A stretch of 64,000 nucleotides of DNA from Oligoflexia bacterium (lineage in GTDB: Bacteria; Bdellovibrionota; Bdellovibrionia; JABDDW01). A program made the position numbers and the translations under genes. The notes below the pieces were generated by a model. It worked only from the letters and a program-made list of their open reading frames with translations. It ran no database searches and was not told the DNA's origin. Shown here piece after piece: positions 35,349 to 57,708 of this stretch; the stretch's first letter is position 1, and each line of letters opens with the position of its first letter. The stretch spans positions 31,635 through 95,634 of the forward strand of contig JAHFAE010000001.1 of assembly GCA_023250675.1 (NCBI GenBank), in the 5' to 3' direction.

Positions 35349-36329
35349 GTGATGTCGTCTTTAGGTGAAGCCAAAAGAGTTTTTGAAATTGAAGCCCAGG
35401 CCATTTTAGAGCTTAAAAATAAACTTGATTCCAAATTTGATGCGGCAGTTTCTCTCATTGTCGAATGTCGTGGAAAAGTCGTTGTGACCGGGATGGGAAA
35501 ATCAGGTCAGATTGCTAGAAAAATTGCTTCTACTTTGTCATCCACTGGCACGCCAGCTGTTTTTGTTCATCCCGCCGAAACTTCACATGGTGATATGGGA
35601 GTCATATCATTCGGAGATATTTTACTTGCCCTATCATATAGGGGTGAGACAGACGAATTGCGGGCCCTTATCGAGTTTGCAAAGCGTAAAGGTGTGAAAT
35701 TAATTTCGCTCACTGGAAATTTGGCGTCCTCTTTGGGAACCGCCAGTGACGTAGCGTTAGATGTTTCAATTAGAGAAGAAGCGTGTCCTCTGGGGTTAGC
35801 ACCGACAGCAAGTACTACGGCTGCCTTGGCCATGGGGGATGCTTTGGCTGTAGCCGCTCTTACTAAACGTGGATTCAATGCCCAAGAATTTGCTGAGTAT
35901 CACCCCGGCGGAAGCCTTGGAAGGCGACTTTTAACGAGGGTCAAAGACTTAATGCATAAAGGAGAAGGGGTACCCCTTGTTCAACTTGAAACAGGAATGA
36001 AAGAAGTCATTTCTGCAATGACGGCAAAAGAAGTGAGAGGTGTTTGCGGCGTCACTGATGCAACAGGAAATCTTTTGGGTATAATCACTGATGGAGATCT
36101 TCGACGACGTTTAGAAAAGAGTAAGAACCCCTTAGATGATTCTGCAAACGACATCATGGTTCGCAATCCAAAAACAGTGGACGCTGCAGAAATGGCAGAA
36201 CGAGCCTTGTTTTTGATGGAGCAATTTGCCATACAAAGTCTTTTTGTCGTCGATCGCATGGGTGGTCAACCACAGCGCCCAGTAGGGATTCTCCATCTTC
36301 AAGACCTTTTGAAGGCTCGAATTCGCTAG
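35349..36329 (+). CDS. kdsD: Arabinose-5-phosphate isomerase (KpsF/GutQ family; SIS + CBS domains)
   Basis: 'VVVTGMGKSGQIARK', 'ISYRGET', tandem CBS C-terminus. Confidence 0.9.
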   Translation: MMSSLGEAKRVFEIEAQAILELKNKLDSKFDAAVSLIVECRGKVVVTGMGKSGQIARKIASTLSSTGTPAVFVHPAETSHGDMGVISFGDILLALSYRGETDELRALIEFAKRKGVKLISLTGNLASSLGTASDVALDVSIREEACPLGLAPTASTTAALAMGDALAVAALTKRGFNAQEFAEYHPGGSLGRRLLTRVKDLMHKGEGVPLVQLETGMKEVISAMTAKEVRGVCGVTDATGNLLGIITDGDLRRRLEKSKNPLDDSANDIMVRNPKTVDAAEMAERALFLMEQFAIQSLFVVDRMGGQPQRPVGILHLQDLLKARIR

Positions 36330-36408
36330 ACTTTACACGAGCCCGACCTTGGGCGAGAACATAATCTGACCTGGCGTTTAAGCTCGGTCTTTGCCACAAT
36401 AAAAGAGT

Positions 36409-36945
36409 ATGCGCCACCTCCACGAGCGACTTCGGAAAGTTCGCATGTTGATATGCGATGTTGACGGCGTTCTTACCGATGGCCGGCTATGGATAAGCGA
36501 TGACGGAAAGTGGCGCCGTTTTTTTCATGTCAAGGATGGCGTGGGAATGAAGCTCTTAATGGACAATGGATATGAAGTTGGAGTCATTTCGGGTGGTAAA
36601 TCCGACGATGTGGTCCAACGTATGGAGTTTCTCAACATAAAGCATTTCTACCTGGAGGCCGCCGATAAAACTCAACCTTTTGAGAAAATATTAGAGAAAA
36701 CGGGCCTTAAAACTGACGAGATCGCCTTCATTGGCGATGAGATTTTTGATATTCCCATTTTAGAACGTGTCGGATTTGCGGCAACAGTACCAGGGGCCGT
36801 TGCCAAGGTAAAAAAATCTGCTCACTACGTCACCAAAACCGACGGGGGTGCCGGTGCCGTGAGAGAAGTTGTTGATCTCATTATGGAGCATGGAGCATTG
36901 AACAAGAAATCTAAGTCCCTAAAAAAAGGTCGGAGCCACTCTTGA
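36409..36945 (+). CDS. kdsC: Kdo-8-phosphate phosphatase (HAD family)
   Basis: 'LICDVDGVLTDG', 'GDEIFDIPIL', 'GGAGAVREVVDLIM'. Confidence 0.85.
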   Translation: MRHLHERLRKVRMLICDVDGVLTDGRLWISDDGKWRRFFHVKDGVGMKLLMDNGYEVGVISGGKSDDVVQRMEFLNIKHFYLEAADKTQPFEKILEKTGLKTDEIAFIGDEIFDIPILERVGFAATVPGAVAKVKKSAHYVTKTDGGAGAVREVVDLIMEHGALNKKSKSLKKGRSHS

Positions 36946-37640
36946 AATACATCCTCACCTTCACATTTATCGTTTCTGTTGTGATGCTCTTTACATCTGC
37001 TTCTCGAGCTGAAATGGTGGAATTCCCTCAAGAAGAATTATCTCGAGAATCTGTGCTACCCATTTTTGACCAACCCGAAGCCGTAAAAAAGAGAACTGTA
37101 CCTTTTGCTGATAGATACCAGTTAGAAGGATTTGCGGGAATGGGGCTAAGTGATCCCTTTTACAACGCATACCCGGTGGGTATTGAAGCTCTTTATCATC
37201 TTAACGATATTCATGCAGCGGGATTGCGTGTTGCCTGGGTCGCCTCTAGTCAAACGAGCTATGTTCCACAAATTCAGCAATTACCAAACGCCAATAGTAT
37301 TCCTTTCGCTAGTGCCCCTTCTATGAAATATTTTGCTTTAGGTGAATATGAATTCACCCCCTATTACGGCAAAATAAGTCTCACAAAGCAAAACGTGATG
37401 AATTTAAGCATTTCAGGCACCGTTTTTGGAGGGGCTGTCGGAATGGATGCTGAAACTAGCCCTGGCTTCGGAGTGGGGCTGAACGAAAGATTTTTATTTA
37501 CAAGAAATTTAGGAATTAAAATTGATTTGCGGGCTATGTTTTACCAACAAACGGATGTGGTTGTAATTACGCCGGCAAAGAGAAACGTGGTTAATCTCTT
37601 TTTAACCGTGGGCGCCGTTTATTTTCTCCCGCAGCTTTAG
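36942..37640 (+). CDS. Outer-membrane beta-barrel protein, GltA/GltB-like
   Basis: Signal peptide, amphipathic strands, C-terminal 'GAVYFLPQL'. First gene of the gliding cluster. Confidence 0.45.
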   Translation: MKYILTFTFIVSVVMLFTSASRAEMVEFPQEELSRESVLPIFDQPEAVKKRTVPFADRYQLEGFAGMGLSDPFYNAYPVGIEALYHLNDIHAAGLRVAWVASSQTSYVPQIQQLPNANSIPFASAPSMKYFALGEYEFTPYYGKISLTKQNVMNLSISGTVFGGAVGMDAETSPGFGVGLNERFLFTRNLGIKIDLRAMFYQQTDVVVITPAKRNVVNLFLTVGAVYFLPQL

Positions 37641-37671
37641 GATGTATTGCAGTTAAAAAATTTGGGGAACG

Positions 37672-38556
37672 ATGCTTACAAAACAGTTTGCAAAAATTGT
37701 ATTTCTATCTTCGATGGCTTCAGGGCAGTTGTGTTTTGCCGAAGAAGGCATCCCTTTTGATCCCAATGTGCCTAACGGTAGCGATTCTTGGGCTCAAGCA
37801 CCTGATTCGTTAAAACCTCTACCTTCCGCTTCTCCGGCAGCGGTTGCCGAAATACCAAAAGAAAATACAGCACCAGCGGTACCTGTTCCTGTGACTAAAC
37901 AAGAGGCGACAAAAAGTGAGATTGTGAAAACAAAAATGCCGCCGCCTGCTGAACTTTCTGGACTTGGGAATTTAGCTCCTTTTAGTGACATCGCCGTCAT
38001 CAGTCGGCGGTTCTTACCCAAGACAAAAAGGTTTGAGATTTTTCCTAATTTGGGGATGGTATTAAATGACGCCTTTTTTAATGACGTAATCTACGGGGGC
38101 CGACTAGCTTATTATTTTTCAGAACACTATGCTTTCGAAGCAACAGGACTGGTTATCAGTACGTCTACCAAAGCAGTTACGGATGAACTTCAAAATATCA
38201 GAAATATCGCTACAGCGTCTTTGGCAACACCAAGATCTTATGCAGGGTTGGATTTTAAGTGGGTTCCGATCTACGGAAAAATTGGATGGATGAATAAAAG
38301 AATTGTGCCTTTCGACCTTTATCTTTCAGGCGGCGGTGGGGTAACCACAACAAATCAAAGTACAACTCCTGCGACTATTCATCTTGGAGTTGGGCAAATC
38401 TTTGCAATTTCAAAGTGGATGGCCGGTAGGTGGGATATCAGTTGGTATGCCTACAATTCAAGTACTACAGTAACGAACCGGGGGACGGGCACCTATTCTA
38501 ATCTTCACGCCACATTTGGTTTAAGCTTTTTCTTTCCCCCGGCGGAGTACAGATGA
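37672..38556 (+). CDS. Outer-membrane beta-barrel protein, GltA/GltB-like
   Basis: Signal peptide, Pro/Ala-rich linker, beta-barrel strands, 'FGLSFFF' C-terminus. Confidence 0.45.
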   Translation: MLTKQFAKIVFLSSMASGQLCFAEEGIPFDPNVPNGSDSWAQAPDSLKPLPSASPAAVAEIPKENTAPAVPVPVTKQEATKSEIVKTKMPPPAELSGLGNLAPFSDIAVISRRFLPKTKRFEIFPNLGMVLNDAFFNDVIYGGRLAYYFSEHYAFEATGLVISTSTKAVTDELQNIRNIATASLATPRSYAGLDFKWVPIYGKIGWMNKRIVPFDLYLSGGGGVTTTNQSTTPATIHLGVGQIFAISKWMAGRWDISWYAYNSSTTVTNRGTGTYSNLHATFGLSFFFPPAEYR

Positions 38557-40202
38557 ATATGAAAACACTTATTCTATTATTGGCTTTTTCATTGCAAGTC
38601 TGGGCAGCACCTGAAGCTAAAACACCTATCCAAAGATCTGCACCTCCACAGGCAGTTCGAACTGCAAAGCCCCAAGTGAAACCAAATTCACGAGCTGCCG
38701 TTGCTCCAAAAACTGTTGCACCCGCCCCTTCGATCCCTCAAAGTGAAAATGAACTTCAGTACGCCCTAAATTTGGCAAAAAAAGGCGATTACTTGGGTGC
38801 GAGTAGTCGTCTGTTTTCTATGACGCGAAATCCTAAATATGCCAGTGATAGAATGAGAATAAAATACATTTTGGGTCTTATGTTTTTTGAAATGAAGATG
38901 TATCAAGTTTCGGCTTTTCAATTTGTGGATGTGGTGAGAAATGCAGACAAAAAATATTCAAAACAATCACTCCAGAAACTATCTATAGCCGCCGATATTC
39001 TAAACGACGACACACTCATTAATTATGCAATCGGAAAAATAGAGGTCGAAGAATTTCCAAAAGAAAATCACGATATGTTAAGATATCGTATAGGCGAGTA
39101 CTACCAACGAAAAGGTGAATGGGATAAGGCCATCGCCAGTTTCTCCAAGGTTCCTTCTACGTCAGCGTATTTTCCCAAATCAAAGTACATGGAGGGAATT
39201 GCCAACGTGAAACGAAATGATCTTAATTCAGCGTTGGCATGCTATTCTTCTTTGGCCGAGAATCGCTCCCTGGCTGGCGTTACGGACACTGATCGAGTAG
39301 CAGGATTGATGGGGATGGCTCGAATATATTACCAAGCCCACAAATGGGATCAAGCCATCGATGTATATCGACAAATACCAAGAGATACAGAACTCTGGCA
39401 CGATGCTCTATTTGAATCGAGTTGGGCTCATATGCGGGCGGCTAATTTCAGGTCGGTATTGAGTAATTTTCATTCGCTCCATTCAGCATTCTATGAGGAT
39501 TTTTATCTACCTGAATCCATTTTGCTCCGAGGCATTGTTTACCTGTACATTTGTCAATATGACGAAATGGATAAAGCCCTTGGTTTATTTGAAAGAATTT
39601 ACCAACCTGTCCTTAATCGACTCGACGACTTTACCAAGACTACAACCGACCTCACTGCCTATTTTAACGAAACAGAGCGGGTGATTAAGAATTTCAATTT
39701 GTTAAAATCAGACTCAAATTCTCGTCGTGGCTATCGAGTTCCATTTTTAGTAGCTCGCGACATCATACGCGAAGGTGATTTTAAACATATTTACACTTAT
39801 ATTAATCGTGTGAGAGAAGAACTGGCCATTGTAAATGCGCAACCGGATATTTGGAGAAAATCCGTTGTAGGACAATACGCCAACAATTTGTTGAAAGGGC
39901 GATTAGATTCAAGCATCAAAAACATTTCAGGCATTGTTCGAACCCATATGTTGACCATGAAGCAAGAGCTTGCCGATATGTTTGAACAATATAATTTTGC
40001 TCGATACGAAATGCTTAACGGCAAAAAAGAAGCGCTCAAAAAGAAAATTCAAGGAAAGGGCGTTGTTACAGCCCATGTCGATGAGTCGAAAAATCGAAGT
40101 TTTTATATTCAAAACGGTTATGAGTACTGGCCCTTTCGTGGTGAGTATTGGCTCGATGAGATCGGTGACTACCACTACCTAGGGACCCAAGGTTGTGAAT
40201 AG
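38553..40202 (+). CDS. Periplasmic TPR-repeat protein, GltC-like
   Basis: Signal peptide 'MKTLILLLAFSLQVWA' and TPR-like helices. Confidence 0.45.
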   Translation: MNMKTLILLLAFSLQVWAAPEAKTPIQRSAPPQAVRTAKPQVKPNSRAAVAPKTVAPAPSIPQSENELQYALNLAKKGDYLGASSRLFSMTRNPKYASDRMRIKYILGLMFFEMKMYQVSAFQFVDVVRNADKKYSKQSLQKLSIAADILNDDTLINYAIGKIEVEEFPKENHDMLRYRIGEYYQRKGEWDKAIASFSKVPSTSAYFPKSKYMEGIANVKRNDLNSALACYSSLAENRSLAGVTDTDRVAGLMGMARIYYQAHKWDQAIDVYRQIPRDTELWHDALFESSWAHMRAANFRSVLSNFHSLHSAFYEDFYLPESILLRGIVYLYICQYDEMDKALGLFERIYQPVLNRLDDFTKTTTDLTAYFNETERVIKNFNLLKSDSNSRRGYRVPFLVARDIIREGDFKHIYTYINRVREELAIVNAQPDIWRKSVVGQYANNLLKGRLDSSIKNISGIVRTHMLTMKQELADMFEQYNFARYEMLNGKKEALKKKIQGKGVVTAHVDESKNRSFYIQNGYEYWPFRGEYWLDEIGDYHYLGTQGCE

Positions 40203-43200
40203 AACCATGAAACGAAACCTCTTCCTATTTTCGATTGTCACAATGGTGCCAGCAGTGGGCTTATCAGCCCCCACTAGTGGGGCAGCGCCCCTTGCTCGAA
40301 CATTCTCGATGAATCGTACTCCAGCCCAAAATGTGAAAGCTCGAGGACAAGTTCGAAAGAAGAAAACCGTAAGCGACATGCTAAAAGAGATAGCAGCGGC
40401 AAGATCAACCCAGATTACGATCAAAAAAAACACCACGGCATTACCCGAAGTGGCTCAGCAAAAAAGGCCCACGGTAATGCCTATGTATGAAGTCAAACCC
40501 CCACGAAGCGGCGATTTGTTTCATGATGCCGGGACCGACGAAGAAAAGTTAGAGCAAATCACTGATCAGGGAATTGAACAACTCTATAAACTTTCCCAGC
40601 AATATAATCAGAGTAAAAATAGGGGTGAACTTTGGCTCCGACTTGCCGAACTCTATGTAGAGAAATCCAAATACATCGAATATCGACTGCAACGTGACTA
40701 TGATCGAAAGCTTGAACTCTATTTTCAAAAGAAAGCACCCCAACCAAAATTGAATTTGAGCAAATCTAAAGAGTACAATTTAAAAGCCATCAAACTTTAT
40801 GAGTGGTTCTTAAGAGACTTTCGTAATGACCCCAAAACTGACCAAGCCATGTTTTTTCTCGGTTATAATTATGTCGAGTTAGAACAGGTTAAAAAGGGAA
40901 TCGGTTTCTACGAACAATTGACCAAGACCTATCCCAATTCCTCTTATGTAGGCGAAGCTCATTTCGCCCTGGGCGAATACTATTTCGATAATGACAAATG
41001 GGCAGATGCGCTAAAGTCTTACTCCGATGTTCTAAAAAATCGGCGAGCGCGCCTCTATACATTTGCGCTCTATAAAATAGCGTGGTGCCAATATCGGTTA
41101 AGCCGCGTGGGGCAGGGATTAAAAACTCTAGAAGAAGTTATCAGGTTAAGCCGTGGAGCCCAAGAAGATTCCCAACTAGCTGGCAAGAAAGTTGTGAACA
41201 AAATTCGTTTAGGTAGTGAAACTCTTAAAGACATCGTTTTATTTTTTGCAGATGTGGGGAATTACAAGAATGCAAGAGAATATTTTTTACATATTGGCGG
41301 GGATAAAGCTCAATACCCCATGCTTGAGAAGTTAGCTTTTCTTTACAGCGATCAAGGTCGACGTGAACAATCTCTTTTTATTTTTAAACAACTCTTAGAA
41401 TACAATCCTACAGCACCCAAGGCGTTCGACTATCAATACCAAATTGTAACTAATTTTGCGACGAGCAAGGACCAGCGCATTTATCGCGATGAACTCTACA
41501 CCTGGATAGACAATTACGGACCCGAAAGTGTTTGGGCCAAGGCAAATCAAGGAAATAAAAAACTGGTCGAAGACGCCTACCATCTCAGAGAATCCACTTT
41601 GAGAAATTACACTCTCTTACTTCATAAAAATGCACAGAACAGTCAGCGTAAGCCTGACATGATCGCAACCCGGCATGCGTACACTCTTTACCTTGAGAAA
41701 TTTAGCGACTCCCCAAAGAGTCCTGAGATGCATTTCTTTTATGCTGAACTCATTTACGCCATGGGCGAGTACGATGTGGCCGGTAAAGAATATCGAATCG
41801 TTGCGGAAAAAGAACCTAAGGGGAAGTACTTTGATTTATCGGTGTTAAATTCGCTACTCTCTCTAGAAAAAGCTCTTAAAAATGATGACGAAATTAAGCA
41901 AATCGTCGGGGATAGTCTAGAACCTGCACCCTTTGGTGAGGCAGAATTGGCATTTATTGCTGCTGCTCAACGATACATAACGGTCGTCCCTAAAGGTGAA
42001 AAAGTCGTGGATGTAAAATTTAAGATTGGACGTTTACACTATGTGTACAATCATTTTGAGGATGCCATTAAAATCTTCAGACAGATTATTTCTCAATATC
42101 CGAAAACTCAATTTGCAGTCTATTCGGCAAATTTGATCTTAGACATCTATAATCTCCGCAAGGACTATGACAACCTGTCAAACGAGGGACTATCTTTAAT
42201 GAAAAACAAGGCCCTTACAGAACAAGGGTTTCAGGCCGACGTAAAAGATCTTGTCGAAAAAGCAAGTTTCAAAAAGGCATTGGATCTTGAAGTTGGAAAA
42301 AACTATGAAGGAAGTGCAAAAGCATTTGCTACATTTGCTCAGAACTATCCGCGAAGTCCATTAGCTATATCTGCGGCTTTCAATGCAGGTGTGAACTATG
42401 AGCGGGCTCATAAATTTCCAGAAGCCATAGCTATGTACTCGAGAGTGGGTCATGGCGGTGTTGGCAAAGGAAATGACAAAGTTCAAAATAATAGTTTATT
42501 ACTACTTGGGAGATTGTACGAACAATCTGGCCAATATGATAAGGCAGCTGTTCAATTTGAAAAGTATGCTAAAGATAATCCCCACGACAAACTCACGCCA
42601 GATCTCTACTATAACTCAGCGATTATTTGGGAAGGGCAGAAGGAGTACTCTCGGGCCATTTCTGATTATCAAAAATATTTTGAGAGAAGTAGGCGTCACG
42701 ACAAGTCCTTGGCATTGTACTCTATTGCTCAAATTCACGAAAAAATGGGACACTCAAAAGCAGCACAAGACGGTTACAACACTTATTTAAATTCTGGCGC
42801 CAACGACTCTGAAAAAATTGTCGAGGCAAATTTTAGAATTGCCGACATTGATTCTTATCGGGGTCGTAATAGTGATGCAGAAAAAGGCTATCGAAAAACT
42901 GTTGGCTCGGCTAAGCATTTTGCGGGCAAAGGTAAACCGGCAGGAATTGTTTGGGCTGCCGAAGCTAAGTTTAAACTTACCGATGCTATCTACAATGATT
43001 TTCAAAATGTCAATATTCCCCATAATCCTAAAAAACAATCTACGGCCATCCAAAATAAATTTGGACTATTGGCAAAGCTTGGCAACAATTTGGCAGAAGT
43101 CATTAAATACGATGAGGGGAACATGGTCATCGCTTCGCTTTGCCGTTTGGGCCAAGCAAACGAGCATATGTATAAGGCTTTAGCCGGAGTTCCGCTGCCA

Positions 43201-43449
43201 ACAGACCTGAATAAAGAAGAATTAGAAAGTTACAGGAAAAAAGTGGAAGCTGAATTGCTTGGGCCCCAAAAACAAAAGGCCCTGGATAATTACGTGAGTG
43301 CAATTAACAAGAGTTATGAAATCAATTATTATAACAAGTGGACGAAGATCGCCCTTGATGCCATGTCCAAGTATCAGCCGGCAAAATACGCGGCACCTCT
43401 TGAAGTCGTAACACCACAAATTAGGTATGACGAAATGGGGATGATGTGA
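40195..43449 (+). CDS. Large TPR-repeat protein (1084 aa), GltD/AgmU-like gliding motility protein
   Basis: Signal peptide and multiple TPR units ('YPNSSYVGEAHFALGEYYFDNDKWADALKSY...'). Sits in Agl/Glt cluster context. Confidence 0.55.
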   Translation: MNRTMKRNLFLFSIVTMVPAVGLSAPTSGAAPLARTFSMNRTPAQNVKARGQVRKKKTVSDMLKEIAAARSTQITIKKNTTALPEVAQQKRPTVMPMYEVKPPRSGDLFHDAGTDEEKLEQITDQGIEQLYKLSQQYNQSKNRGELWLRLAELYVEKSKYIEYRLQRDYDRKLELYFQKKAPQPKLNLSKSKEYNLKAIKLYEWFLRDFRNDPKTDQAMFFLGYNYVELEQVKKGIGFYEQLTKTYPNSSYVGEAHFALGEYYFDNDKWADALKSYSDVLKNRRARLYTFALYKIAWCQYRLSRVGQGLKTLEEVIRLSRGAQEDSQLAGKKVVNKIRLGSETLKDIVLFFADVGNYKNAREYFLHIGGDKAQYPMLEKLAFLYSDQGRREQSLFIFKQLLEYNPTAPKAFDYQYQIVTNFATSKDQRIYRDELYTWIDNYGPESVWAKANQGNKKLVEDAYHLRESTLRNYTLLLHKNAQNSQRKPDMIATRHAYTLYLEKFSDSPKSPEMHFFYAELIYAMGEYDVAGKEYRIVAEKEPKGKYFDLSVLNSLLSLEKALKNDDEIKQIVGDSLEPAPFGEAELAFIAAAQRYITVVPKGEKVVDVKFKIGRLHYVYNHFEDAIKIFRQIISQYPKTQFAVYSANLILDIYNLRKDYDNLSNEGLSLMKNKALTEQGFQADVKDLVEKASFKKALDLEVGKNYEGSAKAFATFAQNYPRSPLAISAAFNAGVNYERAHKFPEAIAMYSRVGHGGVGKGNDKVQNNSLLLLGRLYEQSGQYDKAAVQFEKYAKDNPHDKLTPDLYYNSAIIWEGQKEYSRAISDYQKYFERSRRHDKSLALYSIAQIHEKMGHSKAAQDGYNTYLNSGANDSEKIVEANFRIADIDSYRGRNSDAEKGYRKTVGSAKHFAGKGKPAGIVWAAEAKFKLTDAIYNDFQNVNIPHNPKKQSTAIQNKFGLLAKLGNNLAEVIKYDEGNMVIASLCRLGQANEHMYKALAGVPLPTDLNKEELESYRKKVEAELLGPQKQKALDNYVSAINKSYEINYYNKWTKIALDAMSKYQPAKYAAPLEVVTPQIRYDEMGMM

Positions 43450-44372
43450 GAATAGTTATCTACTTTCTTACAGCTTGTTTTGTCCTTTCAGGTTGCGTCA
43501 CGGTCTTAGGGCCCCCTGACTCAAATACACCCACTGATGCGCCTAAAGATTTGAAAGATGCAGCGGCTCCAAATGCGTTGCCCGGTCCTGGGGCCCTCGA
43601 AGATCCTAATAAAAAAGAAATGCCCAACGTAGAGTCCCTGAAAACTGCAGAACCCACTGTTCCCGCTGATACCGAATTGGATTCCCTTTACAAGAGATTT
43701 ATTGAGGCAAAACAGGCGCGACAATTCAAAGCTGCTACGGATATTGCAGGGCAAATACTAGCGCGAAATCCAAATGATATTAAAGTTTTTAATGCTCTTG
43801 CTGTAATGTCAATCGACCATGGAAAATACGAATTAGCTCGAATGTTTTTAGATAAAATTCTGACAAAGGAACCGGGTAATTCAGCGGCTCTCAATAATTT
43901 GGGAGTTATAGAATTAAAAACTGATAATTTGCGCCTTGCTTTGGTCCAGTTCAAAAAAGCCATTGGCTCTGACTCAAGAAACAAAGCGGCCCACGCCAAT
44001 TTAGGTTCTATTTGTCTTCAGTATAGAAATTTTCAGTGCGCATCGACCGAACTTATGGCCGCTTATGACAATGGGGACCAAGGTACAGATACTTTAAATA
44101 ATCTCGGATTCGCTTTAGCTGGAGCAGGACACTATGATCAAGCGGAGAGTTATTATGACAAGGCGGGTGCGAAAAATTCGTCCAATGTGACGGTGCTTTT
44201 AAATTATGCAGTGCTTCTCATTGAACACGCCAATCGTCCCCAAGACGGAATTAAAGTTTTGAACAAATTGCGGTTTGTTGCACATGAACCTGCTATACTT
44301 GAAAAAGTAGATTACCTCGCCAAAAAGGCAGAGGGGAAAAACCCGACTCCAAAGGATGCACCAATTGACTAA
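43446..44372 (+). CDS. TPR-repeat lipoprotein, GltE/AglT-like
   Basis: Lipobox 'VLSGC' and TPR repeats ('ALNNLGVIELKTDNLRLALVQFKKAIG'). Confidence 0.5.
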   Translation: MRIVIYFLTACFVLSGCVTVLGPPDSNTPTDAPKDLKDAAAPNALPGPGALEDPNKKEMPNVESLKTAEPTVPADTELDSLYKRFIEAKQARQFKAATDIAGQILARNPNDIKVFNALAVMSIDHGKYELARMFLDKILTKEPGNSAALNNLGVIELKTDNLRLALVQFKKAIGSDSRNKAAHANLGSICLQYRNFQCASTELMAAYDNGDQGTDTLNNLGFALAGAGHYDQAESYYDKAGAKNSSNVTVLLNYAVLLIEHANRPQDGIKVLNKLRFVAHEPAILEKVDYLAKKAEGKNPTPKDAPID

Positions 44373-44619
44373 CATAGGGGTGTGGATAGTTTTTTTCTTC
44401 GCATTTTCATGGTCCATGATCTCTTTCTCTGCGGAAAAACAAACGAAAAGAACAAATGTCGACTTTGAAGATCAACTTGTAACGGGTGAAGTCAAAAAGC
44501 CAGAATTATTTTATTTATTGCAAAAGAAACAATTTAATTTTGGTAAGTTAATCAAATTGCGTGAAAATTTTGTGCCAGAAATGGTGAAAACCGCCGAGGA
44601 TATTGAAAAAGCAAAATGA
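44356..44619 (+). CDS. Small secreted protein, GltF-like by position
   Basis: 87 aa, N-terminal hydrophobic segment. Overlaps both neighbouring genes by a few nt. Confidence 0.35.
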   Translation: MHQLTNIGVWIVFFFAFSWSMISFSAEKQTKRTNVDFEDQLVTGEVKKPELFYLLQKKQFNFGKLIKLRENFVPEMVKTAEDIEKAK

Positions 44620-46586
44620 GCTCAGATACTAAACAGCCTGTATTTTTAAGATCGGTAAAAGACGGTAAGGTCTTAGATACCAAGCAATTTTCGAGTCAGC
44701 AGATCGTTATTGGGCGTGAAGGAGAAATTGATTTTGCCGTCAATGATCCTAGTGTATCACCCATTCATGCCATGGTAGAAGAACGAGAGCCGGGAAAGTA
44801 TTTTGTTTCAGATTTAGGCAGCCAAGCCGGCACCTATATCAATGGTGAAAAAATCGTTGATTCAATCTTGCAAAACGGTACAGAAATTCATGTGGGACAA
44901 GTCACTGTTGAATTTCACATTGGAGTTCCAAAACCTCGAAAGGCAGCCGAGCACGATGAAGTTAATTCTACCACAAAAGACGGCGACAGCTTAAAGGCAG
45001 ATGCGCCGGCTTCTAAAGTATCAAAATCAAAAAGTTCAGCTCCAAAGCTTCCCTCCTTTACCTCAGGAGGAGTTGAAATGGTAACAACGGGTACTCACAA
45101 ATCTTCAAAACGTCGCAAGGCTGCAAAGGGAACTTTTGCTCCGTCTACCTCTGTGAATTTTCAAAAAACATTAAGACCAGGAAAAGGAAATACAGTCGAA
45201 ATAACTTTGGCCTGGCAAGATAGAGTCTTAAATACCTATCATTTCAATAAAACTCAGACTGTTCAAATTGGGTCTCATCCTAAAAATCAAATTATATTGC
45301 CAGTATTTGGATCAGTTAGAGTGTCCCATCCTATTTTGAATCTAGATAGCGCAGCGACTATTTATTTAACCTCTGATATGACCGGTGAAATCAACAAAGA
45401 AGGGGGTAGCACCACCAAATTTGATGAGCTCAAGAAAAAGGGACTCATCTTTGCTTCAGGTTCTGGGTTTGCCTACACACTTCAACAAAACGAATTGGTT
45501 AAAATTAACTTTGGCGAAGGGGTGCTCATATTTATTCGATTTGTCGCCGCTGTTCCTGAGCCACGAATGGTTCCCTTTATTGATCTCAGTGTAAATCAAC
45601 TCACGGCCCTAGTAATAGGTTTGATGGGCACAGCTTTGTTCTTGTTTTATGTATTCTTGTATGCCCCGACTCCTCTAGAAAAGGAAGAAGAAGAGGAGCC
45701 ACCGCGCAAGGCAAAATTCTTTTATAGAAAACATGTCGAAGAGGTTAAGCCTGAGACCCAGTCTGTAAGCAAGTCGGCGCAAGAAGCGATTAAAGATCAA
45801 AAAGTCGCACCCGCACGAGGTGAAGTGGGCGCGGCTAAAGAGGCAAAACCAAATAAAAATAAAACGGCTAAGCAAATTCCAACCACAAATAAAGCGGGCA
45901 AAGACAAAGGTATCCAAAAGACTCAAGGCAAAAAAGCAAGTGCAGCGGCAAAAACTCCAGTTAAAGATGTTAAAAAATCAGGCCTACTCGGGGTGTTCGG
46001 AACAAAAGGTGTTCAAGATCAAATCAATAAAGCTTCAAGCGGAGCAGGCAATGCGTTGGGAGCCAGTAAATCGGCCACAGGTGCTGGCGCTGAGGCTGCC
46101 GGGGCTGGCATTGTACCCGGTGCCGGAATGAGAGAAACCGGTGCAGGCGGCAACGGCACGGCCACGGTTGGGATTGCAGCTCCCCAAACAAAAGGTCGGG
46201 GGGGTGGAATCAGCGGTTATGGCACGGGAAGCCTGGGTGCTAAGAAAAACGCAAGCATTGTTGCTGGCGGCGACGACGCCACATTTACAGGTAGCATTGA
46301 CAAAGAAGCCATTAGGCGTGTCGTGCAAGCAAACTTAAAACAAATTAAGGCTTGCTATGAAAAAGGATTGAATAGGGAACCCGGCCTTTATGGAAAAATT
46401 GTCATACAATGGACCATCGGAACCAATGGCCGAGTTTTGGAAGCAGGTATAAAGGGTACAACAATGAATTCAAGCGAAGTAGAAGCGTGCGCTGTGGCAA
46501 GATTGAAAACATGGAAATTTCCTGAGCCTCCGGTCAACGAGGTAGCTGTCGTTAGCTATCCGTTCGTCTTTCAGGCCCAGGAGTAA
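44616..46586 (+). CDS. FHA-domain / TM / TonB_C-like protein, GltG or GltJ (PglI/AgmX)-like
   Basis: N-terminal FHA ('VIGREGEIDFAVNDPSVSPIHAMVEE...SQAGTYINGEKI'). TM 'LTALVIGLMGTALFLFYVFLYA'. Lys/Ala/Gly-rich periplasmic linker. C-terminal 'IVIQWTIGTNGRVLEAGIKGTTM...EACAVARLKTWKFPEP'. Confidence 0.6.
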   Translation: MSSDTKQPVFLRSVKDGKVLDTKQFSSQQIVIGREGEIDFAVNDPSVSPIHAMVEEREPGKYFVSDLGSQAGTYINGEKIVDSILQNGTEIHVGQVTVEFHIGVPKPRKAAEHDEVNSTTKDGDSLKADAPASKVSKSKSSAPKLPSFTSGGVEMVTTGTHKSSKRRKAAKGTFAPSTSVNFQKTLRPGKGNTVEITLAWQDRVLNTYHFNKTQTVQIGSHPKNQIILPVFGSVRVSHPILNLDSAATIYLTSDMTGEINKEGGSTTKFDELKKKGLIFASGSGFAYTLQQNELVKINFGEGVLIFIRFVAAVPEPRMVPFIDLSVNQLTALVIGLMGTALFLFYVFLYAPTPLEKEEEEEPPRKAKFFYRKHVEEVKPETQSVSKSAQEAIKDQKVAPARGEVGAAKEAKPNKNKTAKQIPTTNKAGKDKGIQKTQGKKASAAAKTPVKDVKKSGLLGVFGTKGVQDQINKASSGAGNALGASKSATGAGAEAAGAGIVPGAGMRETGAGGNGTATVGIAAPQTKGRGGGISGYGTGSLGAKKNASIVAGGDDATFTGSIDKEAIRRVVQANLKQIKACYEKGLNREPGLYGKIVIQWTIGTNGRVLEAGIKGTTMNSSEVEACAVARLKTWKFPEPPVNEVAVVSYPFVFQAQE

Positions 46587-46623
46587 TTAAGAAAGTTTTT
46601 TAAAAACTCTAGGAGGAAGCATC

Positions 46624-47283
46624 ATGCAACCAACACCAGAATCTGGAAATTTTATCGTCATGGCATTCCAAGGCGGTGGATGGGGTATGATCCCCATTGC
46701 CATTGTCATGGTCTTTGTCATTTTCTTGATCTTCGAGCGCTTTATGGCTCTCAAGAAACTGGCCATCGATAAGGAAGATTTCAATGAAAAGCTCTTCGGG
46801 ATGGTTCTCAGAGGGGACATCAGGCAAGCTATCACTTTTTGTGACAGCAGACCGGCTCCCCTTACAAACACTTTAAAGTCCGGTCTTGTTCAAGTTTTGA
46901 ACAAACGACCAGACGAAGAAGTTCAAGTGGCCATGGACGGAGCGGTGCTAAAAGAAATGCCAAATCTAGACGGTTGGACGGGGTTTTTGGCTGTATTTGG
47001 TAACGTCGCAACGTTGCTCGGCCTATTGGGGACTATCGTTGGTTTGATCCATTCATTTAGAGCAGTTACCAATGCAGACCCGGCTCAAAAAGCGACTCTT
47101 CTTTCTGCCGGTATTGCAGAGGCCATGAACTGTACGGCATTTGGTTTGATTGTCGCTATTCCTTCCCTTATTGCCTACGGTTATTTTCAAACTAGAACGC
47201 AAAGAATAATCAACGATATCAGTGAAAGCAGCATGAATATCATGAACCTCATTGTCGCCAACCGCGATAAGATGAAGGATTAA
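46624..47283 (+). CDS. MotA/TolQ/ExbB-family proton channel (AglR-like)
   Basis: Three TM segments and 'GLLGTIVGLIHSF', 'AGIAEAMNCTAFGLIVAIPSLIAY' signatures. Confidence 0.85.
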   Translation: MQPTPESGNFIVMAFQGGGWGMIPIAIVMVFVIFLIFERFMALKKLAIDKEDFNEKLFGMVLRGDIRQAITFCDSRPAPLTNTLKSGLVQVLNKRPDEEVQVAMDGAVLKEMPNLDGWTGFLAVFGNVATLLGLLGTIVGLIHSFRAVTNADPAQKATLLSAGIAEAMNCTAFGLIVAIPSLIAYGYFQTRTQRIINDISESSMNIMNLIVANRDKMKD

Positions 47284-47298
47284 AGGGAGCTTCGAGAA

Positions 47299-47772
47299 AT
47301 GTTCACTGAAAGTAATCCAAACGGTAAAAGGGACACAGACGTAGAATTAAATCTTGTCCCCTTTATTGACCTTATGAGCACGTGTATTAGCTTTCTCCTT
47401 ATAACAGCTGTTTGGACCCAAGTGAGCATGATTCAAATCGGTAGTTCTATCTACGGTAAGAAAAATGATTCTGGACAAGTTGAAACTCCACAAAGAGAAC
47501 AAGTGAACTTAAAGGTTGATGTGGTTGATTCTGGATACATAGTCAATGCTGGCCAACAATCCACTCGTATCCCAAAGCTTGGTGGAGAATATGACCAGGC
47601 TTCGCTGACGACACGATTAAAAGATTTAAAAAATAAGTATCCCGAAAAAACCGATGGGATAATCAGTCTCCTCGACACCATTAAATATGACGAACTTATT
47701 CGCGGTATGGATGCCATGATGACGGCCGGATTCCCAGAGATCGCCATCGCGACTCAAGGGGCAGGGATGTAG
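47299..47772 (+). CDS. ExbD/TolR-family protein (AglQ/AglS-like)
   Basis: 'LNLVPFIDLMSTCISFLLI' single TM with Asp; 157 aa. Confidence 0.8.
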   Translation: MFTESNPNGKRDTDVELNLVPFIDLMSTCISFLLITAVWTQVSMIQIGSSIYGKKNDSGQVETPQREQVNLKVDVVDSGYIVNAGQQSTRIPKLGGEYDQASLTTRLKDLKNKYPEKTDGIISLLDTIKYDELIRGMDAMMTAGFPEIAIATQGAGM

Positions 47773-47781
47773 GAGAACAAA

Positions 47782-48372
47782 ATGCCAATTTACATACCGG
47801 GTAGGAGAGACAGGAGAAAAAGAAATCGCTTAATCAACGCCAAGCGAACTATTGTCGTTGGGCTAAGCCTGACCTCTATGGTCGACATGTTCACCATTCT
47901 CGTCGTATTTTTGCTTCAAAACTACAGTGCCACCGGTGAAATCATTTATATTCCTAAAGATGTGAAATTGCCAAAGGCGAGCCAAGTGAAAGAGCTTAAA
48001 CCTGCTCACATTGTGACACTTAATTTAAAAGACGTAGTTTTAGACAAAGAAGTTGTGGCTAAGCTTGATGACGTGAAAGCCCAAAAGGATTGGATGATTC
48101 CCAAATTAAGAGAGCGATTGTCAGCAATGCTTCAGCAAGATGATATTCTCGCAAAACAGGCCGTGGCTCAGAATATCAAGAAGGCCATCCCCCTGGTCCC
48201 AGGCGCTACTCCTGTGCCTGACGAGAGCCGCCGTAAAGTCACCGTGCAAGCCGATAAGGAAATGGATTTTCTCACCATAAAGAAAATCATGTTTACTGTG
48301 ACTGAAGCCGGTGCAGTAGAAATAAATTTTGCTGTTATGAAAAAAGAAGAGCCACTCACTAAAACAAACTAA
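47782..48372 (+). CDS. ExbD/TolR-family protein (AglQ/AglS-like), second copy
   Basis: 'LTSMVDMFTILVVFLLQ' TM with Asp; 196 aa. Confidence 0.75.
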   Translation: MPIYIPGRRDRRKRNRLINAKRTIVVGLSLTSMVDMFTILVVFLLQNYSATGEIIYIPKDVKLPKASQVKELKPAHIVTLNLKDVVLDKEVVAKLDDVKAQKDWMIPKLRERLSAMLQQDDILAKQAVAQNIKKAIPLVPGATPVPDESRRKVTVQADKEMDFLTIKKIMFTVTEAGAVEINFAVMKKEEPLTKTN

Positions 48373-48603
48373 TGGCCCCGCGTCAAACCCACCACGTACG
48401 CTGCCGGTTTCATTCTTTTTAAAACATTAAAAAGTCCATCATAAATGGGGAGTTTTAAAGGCTCTCTCTATCGATCGCGTCAGCTCTTTGATAAGTGTAA
48501 AATAGTTGGACAATATAATAGGAGACTTTCGGTTTTTTTGATGCTTAAACCATGCCAAGTCCGTGGTATTATTTAAAGAGGCAATAAAGGCGAAAAAGGC
48601 TTA

Positions 48604-49644
48604 ATGCAGAGTTTAAAACGGTGGGGATTTGTTGGCCTTTTAGTTTTGCTGGGAATAGAAATACTGACCTTAGCTCCGAAAAAACTGGGCCCAGGTCAAG
48701 ATGAGGCGGCAATATCAAAGTCAGTTCAAGAGGCAGAAATTCTTCCACAAACAAAACCAAGTCAATCGCCTCATTCAACGGTAACGACGATGTCCCAAGT
48801 GATGCGCGGAGTGCATCTTGTTGAAACAGGGCAGGGAAGAAAAGAATGGGAGCTTGATTCAGACTATGCCCAAGGTTTTAAAGACAAGGGAATATGGAAG
48901 CTAAAAGGGGTTCACGTGAAGTTTTTTGGTAGTTCCGAAACAACATACACTGTCACCGGAGATTCGGGATCTATAGAAACTGAAACGAAAAATATGGAAA
49001 TCGAAGGAAACGTAGTGACGACCACCACAGATGGATACTTATTCAAATCAAAGTCTCTACATTATACGAGCAATCCTAGAACTTTGGTTTCAGACGACGA
49101 CGTTTTTATTGTAGGGCCAAAAGAAATAGATGGTCAATTTGAAGTTTCAGGTAAAGGCCTCAACGCCGAATTGGATTCAAATATCATGAGTCTCAAAAAA
49201 AATGTGCACGCTGTAAAATCCATTTCCCCTGGAAAGACAATGACCATTCGATCCAACTGGGCACGCGTTAATAGCAAGAATAGCGAAGCTCATTTTGAAG
49301 ATGATGTCCAAGTAGATATTGAAAATATGAGAATGACTGGCAGTAAAGCTGATTTTGAATATGAGCAAAAAACTCATTTGTTGAGATCTCTTAATATGGT
49401 CGGGAACGTGAAAGTTACTGATCAAAATCATTGGGCTTCGTCTAAACGCGCTCAAGTATTATTTGCTTCCAATGAATTTATTCTCACTGGAGAACCTCGG
49501 GTCATACAAGATGACAACGAACTAAGGGGAACAGAAATTCGATTTATCAATGGCGGAAAAGAAGTGCGAGTGTCCAAAGCCCGCGCTCGTGTCGACAATA
49601 ACGAAGTTGAAGAGCGCAAAAACAAAAAGGCGGTAGATCAGTGA
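48604..49644 (+). CDS. LptC-like membrane-anchored protein with an additional LptA/OstA-like C-terminal half (LptC-LptA fusion-like)
   Basis: N-terminal TM '[19 protein letters not shown]'. Two successive OstA-N-like segments ('[16 protein letters not shown]...KFFGS' and '[30 protein letters not shown]...ILTGEP'). Stop overlaps the lptB start. Confidence 0.55.
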
Positions 49645-50363
49645 GCGTATTAGAAATTGAGAAAATTTCTAAGTCTTATAAAAAGCGCAAGGTTGTCGAC
49701 GAGGTGAGCTTTAATGTGAATTCAGGTCAGATCGTGGGGCTTTTGGGTCCTAACGGTGCAGGCAAGACTACGAGTTTCTATATGGTTGTTGGTTTGATCA
49801 AACCAGATTCTGGCGACATCAAGGTTGATAGTAAAAGCATAGGTCGTCAGCCCATGTACCAGAGGGCCCGAATGGGTGTCAGTTATTTGCCCCAAGAACC
49901 CAGCGTATTTCGAAAACTTACTGTAGAAGATAATATTATGGTTGCTTTAGAGGCCCATGGCCTTGAAGGCTCTGAACGGTCTGAGCGACTAGAAGAATTG
50001 CTGACCGATTTTAAGATTCATCATGTGAGTAAGAACTACGCTTATTCTCTTTCTGGTGGGGAGCGAAGACGTGTAGAAATCGCTCGGGCGTTGGCGGGTA
50101 ACCCATCATTCTTACTCTTAGATGAACCTTTTGCAGGTATTGACCCCATTGCTGTAGGGGATATTCAAAACATTGTATCGCAATTAAAATCTAGAAATAT
50201 TGGAATATTGATCACAGACCACAACGTGAGAGAAACTCTTCGTATTTGTGATCGGGGCTACATATTAAAAGAAGGAAAAATCCAGGTAACAGGAACAGCA
50301 AAAGAAATTGCCCAATCACCCATCGCTCGAAAATTTTATCTCGGTGAAAACTTTGATTTGTAA
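49641..50363 (+). CDS. lptB: LPS export ABC transporter ATPase
   Basis: Walker A 'GPNGAGKTT', signature '[15 protein letters not shown]', Walker B '[11 protein letters not shown]'. Confidence 0.9.
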
Positions 50364-50378
50364 AAGGCAGAAGATTTA

Positions 50379-51821: not shown

Positions 51822-51901
51822 CTTGCCCCTTGATAAGGGGATTAGTTGCTACCAAATTGATACCGATGTTTCTTGTCCCACCGAGCTTAGAGGAGGTCCA
51901 A

Positions 51902-52264
51902 ATGCAAACCAAATTTACTTTTAAACATATGGAGCCATCAGATTCTATTATCGAACACGCCCAGGAGCGAATCATGCGGCTTGACAAGTACGCTCTTCGC
52001 AAGGAAGAAAAAGTGCATTTTATATTTAGTATTCAAAAGCACGTGCAGGTTGCAGAAATTATTATTGACGCTGGGTCAGTGCATTTTACAGCTGTGGCTA
52101 AAGATGAAAAACTTCTGGCAGCTATCGATTACGCCATTGATAAGTTAGAGAGACAATTTATTAAACATAAAGAAAAAGTCCAAAACCATAAGGACTTTGA
52201 CCAAAGCAATGAAGGTATTCTTACCCAGCAAATCGCTGATATTAACAAACGAAACGCGGGCTAA
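51902..52264 (+). CDS. hpf: Ribosome hibernation promoting factor (short form)
   Basis: 'MQTKFTFKHMEPSDSIIEHAQERIMRLDKY...'. RBS 'AGAGGAGG' upstream of the trimmed start. Confidence 0.8.
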   Translation: MQTKFTFKHMEPSDSIIEHAQERIMRLDKYALRKEEKVHFIFSIQKHVQVAEIIIDAGSVHFTAVAKDEKLLAAIDYAIDKLERQFIKHKEKVQNHKDFDQSNEGILTQQIADINKRNAG

Positions 52265-55515: not shown

Positions 55516-55571
55516 GGCGAAGTACGGCCATAGTATTCTGACGTACTTCACCCAAATGTCCTTAATTTAAT

Positions 55572-56144: not shown

Positions 56145-56261
56145 AATATATTCTCCTTAAAAAAGACTATGGAGAACTTTAGCAACATCTGTACCCAAGC
56201 CCAGGAGTAAGCTTGATCTACTTAACATTTGATGGCGGAAGGAGCTTCGTTAACCAGTGAA

Positions 56262-56639: not shown

Positions 56640-56777
56640 GGTCTACCTCCTGAGAAGAATGATTCTTAGCTGGCATGGGAATCAGAGTCAATAAACCTAA
56701 TAATTTCGAACTGGAACTCGGCATCTATGACAAGGGCAGTGGTAGCTACCACTTCTCAAACATTCCCAAGAGATTCG

Positions 56778-57674: not shown

Positions 57675-57708
57675 AGTTGAACTTCGCCTTTCACTAAAAG
57701 GAGAGATT

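Follow-up and report, generated by a model that had tools for sequence, protein, structure and literature searches.

The window analyzed in this study is a stretch of 64,000 nt from an Oligoflexia bacterium (contig JAHFAE010000001.1, positions 31,635-95,634; assembly GCA_023250675.1). Between positions 36942 and 48372 it harbors a cluster of genes coding for a putative Agl/Glt-type machine related to the gliding machinery of Myxococcus xanthus. All positions given below refer to this window unless a related locus is named. Exactly ten open reading frames (ORFs), all on the plus strand, fill this region in the order gltA-gltB-gltC-gltD-gltE-gltF-gltG-aglR-aglQ-aglS, and the junctions between them measure, in gene order, +31, -4, -8, -4, -17, -4, +37, +15, and +9 bp. 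Ten co-directional genes with overlapping or very short junctions had been described in a sequence-only reading of the window, and this was confirmed, with junctions ranging from -17 to +37 bp. The domains which that reading had assigned gene by gene were also recovered with Pfam and NCBIfam. The cluster is probably co-transcribed as a ten-gene unit.

Domains were assigned using Pfam and NCBIfam, with the NCBIfam equivalog cut-offs serving as threshold for family membership. Related loci were collected by a profile scan with a GltG alignment, taking one genome per species. This yielded 213 relatives. The 80 best loci were retained, and their gene content was read by tblastn using all proteins of the window. 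All ten genes were detected in 58 of the 80 loci, which are called complete in the following. In each of the other loci, one or more genes gave no detectable match, and many of these loci lie on short contigs. The Glt assignments were made with NCBIfam profiles and by orthology to B. bacteriovorus genes, and the MXAN numbers given below were taken from the table of Luciano et al. (2011; PMC3169522).

Outer-Membrane and Periplasmic Proteins

The first two genes of the cluster encode outer-membrane beta-barrels, which are paralogues of each other. The GltA-like protein (36942-37640) consists of 232 amino acids including a signal peptide, and its gene starts with a TTG codon. The GltB-like protein (37672-38556) has a length of 294 amino acids and carries a Pro/Ala-rich N-terminal extension. 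Both barrels exceed the NCBIfam cut-off of 60 bits for the family OMP_myx_plus (TIGR04565), with 74 and 112 bits, respectively. The gltA-like gene is the positional orthologue of a 241-residue ORF in Bdellovibrio bacteriovorus (locus L074), which corresponds to Bd0828. The GltB-like protein and the product of the B. bacteriovorus ORF that represents Bd0829 show 42-44% identity, and Bd0829 was mapped to MXAN_2539 (GltB) by Luciano et al. (2011; PMC3169522).

The barrel genes are followed by three genes for proteins with tetratricopeptide repeats (TPR). The GltC-like periplasmic protein (38553-40202) comprises 549 amino acids including a signal peptide. Its top NCBIfam match is NF033756 (gliding_GltC) with an E-value of 3e-58 and 198 bits, which is below the equivalog cut-off of 450. 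The alignment spans residues 66-548 of the protein and positions 119-619 of the 622 model positions, and TPR families of Pfam were matched as well.

The second of these proteins is a putative GltD/AgmU-like large periplasmic scaffold (40195-43449). It consists of 1084 amino acids with a signal peptide and no lipobox, and it matches several TPR families of Pfam. Over approximately 1000 amino acids it is 41-42% identical to the 1070-residue B. bacteriovorus ORF corresponding to Bd0832 (AgmU), which was mapped to MXAN_4870 (Luciano et al., 2011; PMC3169522). No family named GltD is found among the NCBIfam matches of this protein.

The putative GltE/AglT-like TPR lipoprotein (43446-44372) has a length of 308 amino acids and contains the lipobox LSGC with the cysteine at position 17. 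Its top NCBIfam match is NF033758 (gliding_GltE, E-value 7e-17) with 61 bits, which is below the cut-off of 225 and barely exceeds the score of generic TPR families (PrsT, 58 bits). The lipobox and the place of the gene directly after gltD fit the assignment as GltE. Its position matches that of Bd0833, which was mapped to MXAN_4869 (Luciano et al., 2011; PMC3169522).

The small GltF/CglF-like protein (44356-44619) consists of 87 amino acids with one N-terminal hydrophobic segment. Its sole NCBIfam match is NF033764 (gliding_CglF, E-value 5e-11), which reaches 42 bits against a cut-off of 90 and aligns residues 27-83 to positions 32-88 of the 88 model positions. CglF and GltF are names of one and the same protein (PMC4488436). 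By tblastn, a gene of this type was detected between gltE and gltG in 78 related loci, where the encoded proteins show 43-87% identity.

The GltG-Like Transducer

The GltG-like protein (44616-46586) is a TonB/TolA-type transducer of 656 amino acids, in which an FHA domain, a transmembrane helix and a TonB_C-like domain follow each other. Residues 8-654 align to NF033760 (gliding_GltG) with an E-value of 1.4e-84 and 285 bits, compared to a cut-off of 650. The C-terminal domain scores 111 bits for NF033768 (AgmX/PglI) and lies above the cut-off of 40, and the FHA domain was detected by Pfam with an E-value of 5.8e-17. The best match in a database of 5.8 billion proteins is 62% identical. More distant GltG-like proteins (P0027 and P0028) are encoded on short contigs in Glt-like loci of a different gene order. 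In the case of P0028, the motor gene is followed by two exbD genes, a small gene, the gltG-like gene and a large gene.

The structure of the protein was modeled with AlphaFold2 and compared to the PDB by Foldseek. The model shows three confident domains, with predicted local distance difference test values (pLDDT) of 80-90 in the folded parts. A cytoplasmic FHA domain (residues 9-102) and a second beta domain (190-310) precede the membrane helix (326-349), which is followed by a disordered periplasmic linker rich in glycine, alanine and lysine (357-544) and an alpha/beta domain resembling the C-terminal domain of TonB (TonB-CTD; 546-654). The top Foldseek matches are FHA domains. The FHA structure of DgcB (6hc1) is also among the fold matches of the FHA domain of GltG.

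In M. xanthus, GltG comprises an FHA domain (1-114), a central FHA-like domain (190-329), a helix (330-348) and a TonB-CTD (544-640) (Cambillau and Mignot, 2025; PMC11761067). According to the model, the architecture of the window protein is the same. Its membrane segment (LSVNQLTALVIGLMGTALFLFYVFLYAP) contains no histidine. In TonB and TolA, the histidine of the SHLS motif in the membrane helix is reported to be the motor-binding residue (PMC12204202).

The AglR-, AglQ-, and AglS-Like Motor Proteins

Downstream of gltG, three genes code for the motor. The AglR-like protein (46624-47283) is a proton-channel subunit of the TolQ/ExbB family with a length of 219 amino acids and three transmembrane helices, visible as three hydrophobic segments, and it carries the conserved motifs GLLGT and NCTAFGL. 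It was assigned to MotA_ExbB by Pfam with an E-value of 3.5e-29. The scores for the equivalog families are 91 bits for TolQ (cut-off 221) and 61 bits for ExbB (cut-off 206). With 36% identity over 95 amino acids to TolQ and 38% over 69 amino acids to ExbB of Escherichia coli, it is equally far from both. By comparison, it is 57-81% identical to its orthologues in Bdellovibrionales. A database search with this protein gave at least 120 matches, and the matches listed are all close orthologues with 63-100% identity.

Residue conservation was counted over 76 AglR, 76 AglQ, and 72 AglS orthologues, and the residues of the proton relay are conserved throughout. Thr137 and Thr171 of AglR are invariant in all 76 sequences. 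The AglQ-like protein (47299-47772), a subunit of the TolR/ExbD family with 157 amino acids, carries Asp24 in its sole transmembrane helix, which is invariant as well (76/76). The same applies to Asp35 in the sole transmembrane helix of the AglS-like protein (47782-48372; 72/72), a second TolR/ExbD-family subunit of 196 amino acids with a basic N-terminal tail.

Both subunits were assigned to ExbD by Pfam, with E-values of 3.6e-15 for AglQ and 8.4e-11 for AglS. In NCBIfam, the AglQ-like protein scores 28 bits for TolR (cut-off 127) and 17 bits for ExbD (cut-off 153), and no match was obtained for the AglS-like protein. The position of aglQ corresponds to that of Bd0837, and aglS corresponds in position and size to Bd0838 (196 amino acids). 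These genes were mapped to MXAN_6861 and MXAN_6860, respectively (Luciano et al., 2011; PMC3169522).

Two other residues of AglR vary among the 76 orthologues. Position 166 is occupied by glutamate in 40 and by histidine in 34 of them, with glutamate in the window. At position 180, the proline of TolQ occurs in no more than 12 orthologues including that of the window, and isoleucine, valine or leucine is found otherwise. On the alignment, these changes are lineage-specific variation in the predicted third transmembrane helix. In B. bacteriovorus s4 (L074, 12166-12817), aglR is distributed over two frames (residues 4-51 and then 50-219), and the longest ORF has 160 amino acids. This apparent frameshift or assembly error is not found in strain Bd5 (L078), in which aglR is intact.

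The Pfam families MotA_ExbB, ExbD and TonB_C would also be expected if the motor genes and the TonB_C-like protein formed a canonical Tol-Pal or ExbBD-TonB system, next to which the TPR and barrel genes lie by chance. Moreover, TolQ and ExbB are the best sequence matches of the channel protein in the PDB, and the source annotations of the relatives read ExbB/TolQ or TonB. However, the scores given above miss the equivalog cut-offs of TolQ, ExbB, TolR and ExbD widely, and Pfam and NCBIfam revealed no gene for TolA, TolB, Pal, CpoB or a TonB-dependent receptor in the cluster. Two distinct TolR-like genes are present instead of one, and the transducer possesses FHA domains and lacks the histidine in its membrane helix. 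Furthermore, the TPR, barrel and small proteins match gliding families best, and the ten genes are colinear in 58 genomes. A Tol-Pal or ExbBD-TonB identity is therefore very improbable. The assignment to the Agl/Glt family, which had been proposed from the sequence, holds, as the gliding families gave the best scores for the TPR, barrel and small proteins in the profile searches and the four Tol and Exb families remained below their cut-offs. The outcome that would have refuted it according to the sequence-only reading was thus not obtained.

Conservation of the Gene Order and Orthology to Bd0828-0838

The gene order of the window was found in every related locus that is long enough to judge. 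All 58 complete loci are colinear with the window, including those on two B. bacteriovorus chromosomes (L074 and L078). With E-values down to 1e-84, the homology together with the colinearity in 58 genomes is far beyond chance.

The ORFs of B. bacteriovorus L074 have sizes of 241, 265, 522, 1070, 285, 700, 158, and approximately 196 amino acids. For Bd0828-Bd0838, sizes of 240, 266, 529, 1066, 281, 707, 221, 158, and 196 amino acids are listed in the supplementary table of Luciano et al. (2011; PMC3169522), in which Bd0828-0838 are related to MXAN_2539, 2541, 4870, 4869, 4867, 6862, 6861, and 6860. Based on the colinearity and these matching sizes, the cluster of the window is the orthologue of Bd0828-0838. 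This agrees with the downstream synteny of the window, as Bd0843 is rpoN (PMC3464611).

Between the window and B. bacteriovorus, the proteins share only 32-65% identity. The nearest genomes are metagenome-assembled genomes that are also named "Oligoflexia bacterium" (L001, L002, and L004), with RpoN proteins that are approximately 80-83% identical. The window can therefore be assigned to a separate, uncultured lineage of Bdellovibrionales.

Four "tonB-like/agl operons" were listed for B. bacteriovorus HD100 by Lambert et al. (2010; PMC2797640), and these four sets were termed "expanded core complexes" by Luciano et al. (2011; PMC3169522). According to the latter authors, the motor genes of Bd0828-0838 are closest to aglRQS and this set is the best candidate for the gliding apparatus, while GltH, GltI, GltJ, and GltK are missing from Bdellovibrio. 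This type of cluster has thus been known since 2010-2011, and the window is a further, expected case in a separate lineage.

Two parts of the sequence-only reading have to be revised. It had called the gliding cluster complete, but neither the cluster nor the scanned ORFs of the window contain GltH, GltI, GltJ, GltK, CglB or AglZ, and the gene set equals the reduced "expanded core complex" of Bdellovibrio. Furthermore, it had regarded the components as fused into one unit. Luciano et al. (2011; PMC3169522) infer that the single locus is ancestral and that the linkage was lost in Myxococcus, so that the term "fused" reverses the likely polarity.

Chromosomal Position

The cluster is located between genes involved in the metabolism of 3-deoxy-D-manno-octulosonate (Kdo) and genes for the export of lipopolysaccharide (LPS), and the adjacent genes on both sides (35349-36945 and 48604-52264) are likewise encoded on the plus strand. 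Upstream, a KdsD-type isomerase of the KpsF/GutQ family (35349-36329; TIGR00393, 294 bits, cut-off 204) is followed by kdsC (36409-36945; TIGR01670, 149 bits, cut-off 107), and genes for KdsB and PyrG were identified by Pfam and NCBIfam further upstream of the isomerase. Downstream lies a gene for a fused LptC and LptA-like protein of 346 amino acids (48604-49644; LptC family, 87 bits, cut-off 38). It is followed by lptB (49641-50363; 371 bits, cut-off 240), rpoN (50379-51821; 458 bits, cut-off 277), and hpf (51830-52264; 58 bits, cut-off 41), all of them assigned with NCBIfam.

The location of the cluster between kdsC and lptC/A, which had already been noted in the sequence-only reading together with the adjacency of these genes in enterobacteria, was verified by the Pfam and NCBIfam assignments and by the E. 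coli K-12 reference, in which kdsD-kdsC-lptC-lptA-lptB-rpoN-hpf are contiguous. The genes lptABC, kdsCD, hpf, and yhbJ are reported to form a conserved neighborhood of rpoN across diderms (Francke et al., 2011).

Among the related loci, the downstream neighborhood was judged in the 54 loci with at least 5.5 kb of downstream sequence and the upstream neighborhood in the 53 loci with upstream sequence. LptC/A, LptB, and RpoN follow AglS in all 54 loci, and kdsC, kdsD or pyrG is found upstream in 47 of the 53. One gene order (58/58 complete loci) and one address between the Kdo genes and lptC/A-lptB-rpoN (54/54 downstream) are what this study adds to the description of the cluster. In a targeted full-text literature search, no paper noting its constant Kdo-lpt-rpoN address was found.

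The adjacent and overlapping arrangement of the flanking genes in E. coli could suggest that the cluster is a recent genomic island, which in this genome happened to be inserted at the junction of kdsC and lptC. Luciano et al. (2011; PMC3169522) indeed inferred that the core complex was transferred horizontally from one phylum to another. However, all relatives sampled share this insertion and its gene order, including those with a GltG identity as low as 32%. The GC content of the ten genes, overall and at the third codon position (GC3), is equal to that of the flanks, and flanking repeats do not exceed chance (9 bp, while shuffled sequences gave 9 bp on average and 14 bp at most). No tRNA was found in the 64-kb window, a scan with Rfam gave no match in it, and no integrase domain is present among its annotated ORFs. 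The uniform composition and the lack of flanking repeats argue for an old arrangement and not for a recent island, which is extremely improbable. Rather, the cluster would have been inserted long ago between kdsC and lptC, into a locus which is contiguous in most diderms, and this insertion would have occurred at or before the common ancestor of the sampled Bdellovibrionales.

The locus of the most distant LptC match (P0057, locus L082) has the order rplQ-lptC-lptA-lptB-rpoN-hpf-rapZ and contains neither kdsC nor glt genes. It was considered as an empty site for dating the insertion, but was dropped, as it does not date it. In this locus, lptC (216 amino acids) and lptA (192 amino acids) are separate genes. 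In the window, an LptC domain (residues 51-203) and an LptA-like domain (211-327) are fused in one membrane-anchored protein, and this fusion is kept in the Bdellovibrionales loci.

The ORF of hpf comprises 144 amino acids when read from a TTG codon. On a metagenome contig of identical sequence (L081), hpf was called from a later start with 120 amino acids, and the HPF domain begins at residue 25.

Junctions and Regulatory Signals

The stop codon of kdsC and the TTG start codon of the gltA-like gene overlap by 4 bp (TTGA; 36942-36945, plus strand), and a GGAG sequence is located 7 nt upstream. The length of this junction was determined over 28 loci, and in 26 of them it lies between -19 and +43 bp. 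This tight junction is consistent with a read-through from the Kdo genes.

At the other end of the cluster, an AT-rich gap of 231 bp (48373-48603) separates aglS from the lptC/A gene, which is the sole long junction of the gene run. The only terminator-like hairpin in it is a weak one (48549-48567). The junction between aglS and lptC is the variable spot of the region, with lengths between -42 and +3969 bp over 68 loci. In 37 of the 80 loci it contains a divergent gene for a protein of 230-260 amino acids, in which two GYF_2 domains are combined with a PilZ domain (Pfam E-values 2.5e-21 and 2.7e-12), for example in L001 (13755-14543, minus strand) and L009 (16471-17169, minus strand). No tblastn signal of this gene or a remnant of it was found anywhere in the window, including the 231-bp gap, and the gene is missing from B. 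bacteriovorus. The GYF-GYF-PilZ protein may be a partner of the machine that responds to cyclic di-GMP (c-di-GMP). A GYF domain also occurs in GltJ of M. xanthus. The variability of this junction, which often includes a divergent gene, argues against an obligatory co-transcription of the cluster with the lpt genes and rpoN.

No sigma-54 promoter was found in front of the cluster, and the total number of consensus matches in the window is at chance level. The sole consensus match without mismatch in the 64 kb (TGGCACATCCATTGCT) is located at 23677-23692 on the plus strand, 13 kb upstream of the cluster. It lies approximately 70 bp 5' of an unrelated ORF of 391 amino acids (23763-24938) without a match in Pfam or NCBIfam. 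Scans for sigma-70 promoters and terminators gave the same counts as in shuffled sequences and are thus uninformative about the transcription units. The sequence-only reading had suggested a co-regulation of the cluster with outer-membrane biogenesis, and such a coupling, also to LPS export, is at present a hypothesis.

Proposed Mechanism and Function

A mechanism for the machine can be proposed based on the model of Cambillau and Mignot (2025; PMC11761067) and on the two-hybrid result for AglR and GltG (Luciano et al., 2011; PMC3169522), and it is by analogy with these that protein contacts and a motility output are assigned to the cluster. Gene content, domain layout, proton-relay residues and orthology are direct results of the analysis. 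The TolQ-like AglR, probably as a pentamer, would surround the pair of AglQ and AglS and form a proton channel in the inner membrane, which converts the proton-motive force into movement. This movement would be passed to GltG, whose disordered linker could cross the peptidoglycan. The TonB-like end of GltG would dock, along with the lipoprotein GltE, on GltD as the TPR scaffold of the periplasm, and GltF and GltC would bridge this scaffold to the barrels GltA and GltB in the outer membrane. The output would be a force at the cell surface, which most likely serves slow surface gliding as well as prey contact, entry, and exit.

We consider it probable that the region, as the orthologue of Bd0828-0838, encodes an envelope-spanning machine of the Agl/Glt type in an uncultured lineage of Bdellovibrionales, with gliding and prey contact as its likely output. 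Indirect experimental support comes from B. bacteriovorus, in which a transposon mutant of Bd0838 (aglS) showed defects in attachment to the prey as well as in its killing and rounding, and in which predation depended on Bd0836 (Duncan et al., 2019). The genes Bd0828-0838 are regulated as a unit (Lambert et al., 2010; PMC2797640).

Several points weigh against this interpretation. According to a 2026 review, the gliding machinery of Bdellovibrio is still unidentified (PMC13104615), and B. bacteriovorus has four paralogous clusters that are candidates for gliding. Each of the components missing from the cluster and from those ORFs of the window that were covered by the Pfam and NCBIfam scans (GltH, GltI, GltJ, GltK, CglB, and AglZ) is essential in M. 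xanthus. In addition, all Glt equivalog cut-offs were missed (GltC 198/450, GltG 285/650, GltE 61/225, and CglF 42/90 bits), which marks the proteins as distant homologues and not as equivalogs. The assignments of GltD and of AglR, AglQ, and AglS are based on the orthology to the Bd genes and on the published tree. Finally, the phenotype of the aglS mutant was obtained in liquid predation assays and thus points to attachment rather than to translocation on surfaces.

The impaired attachment and predation in liquid of mutants in the aglS and aglR orthologues would be in line with an Agl/Glt-like machine that does not drive gliding. Such a machine could serve another process of the envelope, for example the handling of a surface polymer, as the Agl-Nfs machinery does, or a Tol-like task at the outer membrane or in the LPS layer, and the fixed neighbors would then reflect a functional link. 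The invariant neighborhood (LptC/A-LptB-RpoN in 54/54 loci) and the tight junction to kdsC fit this idea. However, gene order by itself does not prove a function, and the downstream junction is variable and often contains a divergent gene.

Expression data and phylogeny also bear on this question. Bd0828-0838 are up-regulated in host-independent growth and not early in predation (Lambert et al., 2010; PMC2797640), duplicated Agl/Glt sets have gained new functions, and the core complex is found in non-gliding bacteria (Luciano et al., 2011; PMC3169522). Likewise, the scanned ORFs of the window revealed neither the adhesin nor the components of the cytoplasmic platform known from M. xanthus. On the other hand, the tree of Luciano et al. 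(2011; PMC3169522) places this paralogue of Bdellovibrio closest to the true gliding motor, and B. bacteriovorus is a demonstrated glider in which this cluster is the best-conserved candidate. A function apart from gliding is unlikely, but it has to be taken seriously.

It is rather doubtful, but conceivable, that the Agl/Glt paralogue is functionally coupled to the Kdo and LPS export genes, and that its invariant place in the whole order, with translational coupling to kdsC and with lptC/A-lptB-rpoN immediately downstream, reflects this link. In this case, the machine would be made together with their products and would act on the outer membrane or the LPS layer, e.g., by organizing the surface for prey attachment, instead of or besides gliding, and the GYF-GYF-PilZ protein would provide a control by c-di-GMP in many lineages.

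Gliding and prey contact remain the favored output of the cluster. Its constant gene order and address mark it as the copy among the paralogues of Bdellovibrio that was fixed anciently and passed on vertically. For the question which machinery drives gliding as well as entry into and exit from the prey in Bdellovibrio, this cluster is thus the first choice. Furthermore, it offers a natural minimal set without GltH, GltI, GltJ, GltK, and CglB for finding the indispensable parts of the Myxococcus machinery.

Further Features of the Window

FHA domains recur in the window, as they are found in GltG, in a GGDEF protein and in a sigma-54 activator. The latter is an enhancer-binding protein with an N-terminal FHA domain (30820-32199, minus strand), which is encoded upstream of the cluster, at a distance of 5 kb from it and of 18 kb from rpoN. 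The diguanylate cyclase with FHA and GGDEF domains (7944-8861, plus strand) is encoded close to an extracytoplasmic function (ECF) sigma factor of 201 amino acids (10905-11510, plus strand). This pair recalls Bd0742 (DgcB) and Bd0743 of B. bacteriovorus, which we take to be a comparable pair.

A second GGDEF protein (3002-4411, plus strand), a PilZ protein of 202 amino acids (16823-17431, plus strand), and a protein of 453 amino acids with only a C-terminal FliL domain (29421-30782, plus strand) were also identified. In addition, a protein of 302 amino acids (15878-16786, minus strand) shows a weak match to the TonB C-terminal domain with 24.8 bits, compared to a cut-off of 27.1.

Finally, the region 55500-59500 contains short ORFs on both strands without a family match as well as a protein of 217 amino acids with an HNH endonuclease domain (57601-58254). 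The GC skew is negative at 56-60 kb of the window. Possibly, this region represents a small segment that is variable or of foreign origin.

Comparison With Known Systems

The Tol-Pal and ExbBD-TonB systems follow the same motor principle as the machine of the window, with a channel of the TolQ/ExbB type and plugs of the TolR/ExbD type that carry a transmembrane aspartate. They also drive a single-pass transducer with a TonB-C-like domain. However, the window encodes TPR scaffolds and small barrels as partners, in place of TolB and Pal or TonB-dependent receptors.

A use of such a machinery apart from motility is also known. To our knowledge, sporulation has not been described in Bdellovibrionales. 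In M. xanthus, the Agl-Nfs spore-coat machinery combines the Agl motor with a set of proteins paralogous to Glt, which serves a non-motility function (Wartel et al., 2013; PMC3858216).

The seven-gene core complex of Gammaproteobacteria, Geobacter, and Fibrobacter (gltC, gltD, gltE, gltG, aglR, aglQ, and aglS) resembles the window in that motor, transducer, and TPR scaffold are encoded at a single locus. The cluster of the window additionally comprises GltA, GltB, and GltF, which are restricted to Myxococcales and Bdellovibrionales according to Luciano et al. (2011; PMC3169522).

With the Agl-Glt machinery of M. xanthus, the window has homologues of AglR, AglQ, AglS, GltA, GltB, GltC, GltF, and GltG in common, and those of GltD and GltE are putative. 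The order D-E-F-G of cluster G1 and the order R-Q-S of cluster M1 are also found in the window. The two GltG proteins have the same domain layout with the membrane helix at nearly the same residue numbers, the putative GltE of the window is a TPR lipoprotein like that of M. xanthus, and both TolR-like subunits carry a transmembrane aspartate. In contrast, the components are distributed over three loci in M. xanthus and encoded at one locus in the window, and the barrel genes have the order K-B-A-C in M. xanthus and A-B-C in the window. Unlike its counterpart in M. xanthus, the putative GltD of the window has no lipobox, and GltF has only 87 amino acids, whereas residue numbers in the model of M. 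xanthus go up to at least 147 (PMC11761067).

Several features distinguish the window from B. bacteriovorus. Genes for KdsD and PyrG are located directly upstream in the window, the gap before lptC/A has a length of 231 bp compared to approximately 30 bp in L074, and AglR contains Pro180 as well as Glu166, where Bdellovibrio proper has a histidine. The cluster Bd0828-0838 also shares several features with that of the window. Both lack GltH, GltI, GltJ, and GltK, both are followed by LptC/A, LptB, and RpoN, and the ten genes of the two clusters agree in identity and order and are of nearly equal sizes.

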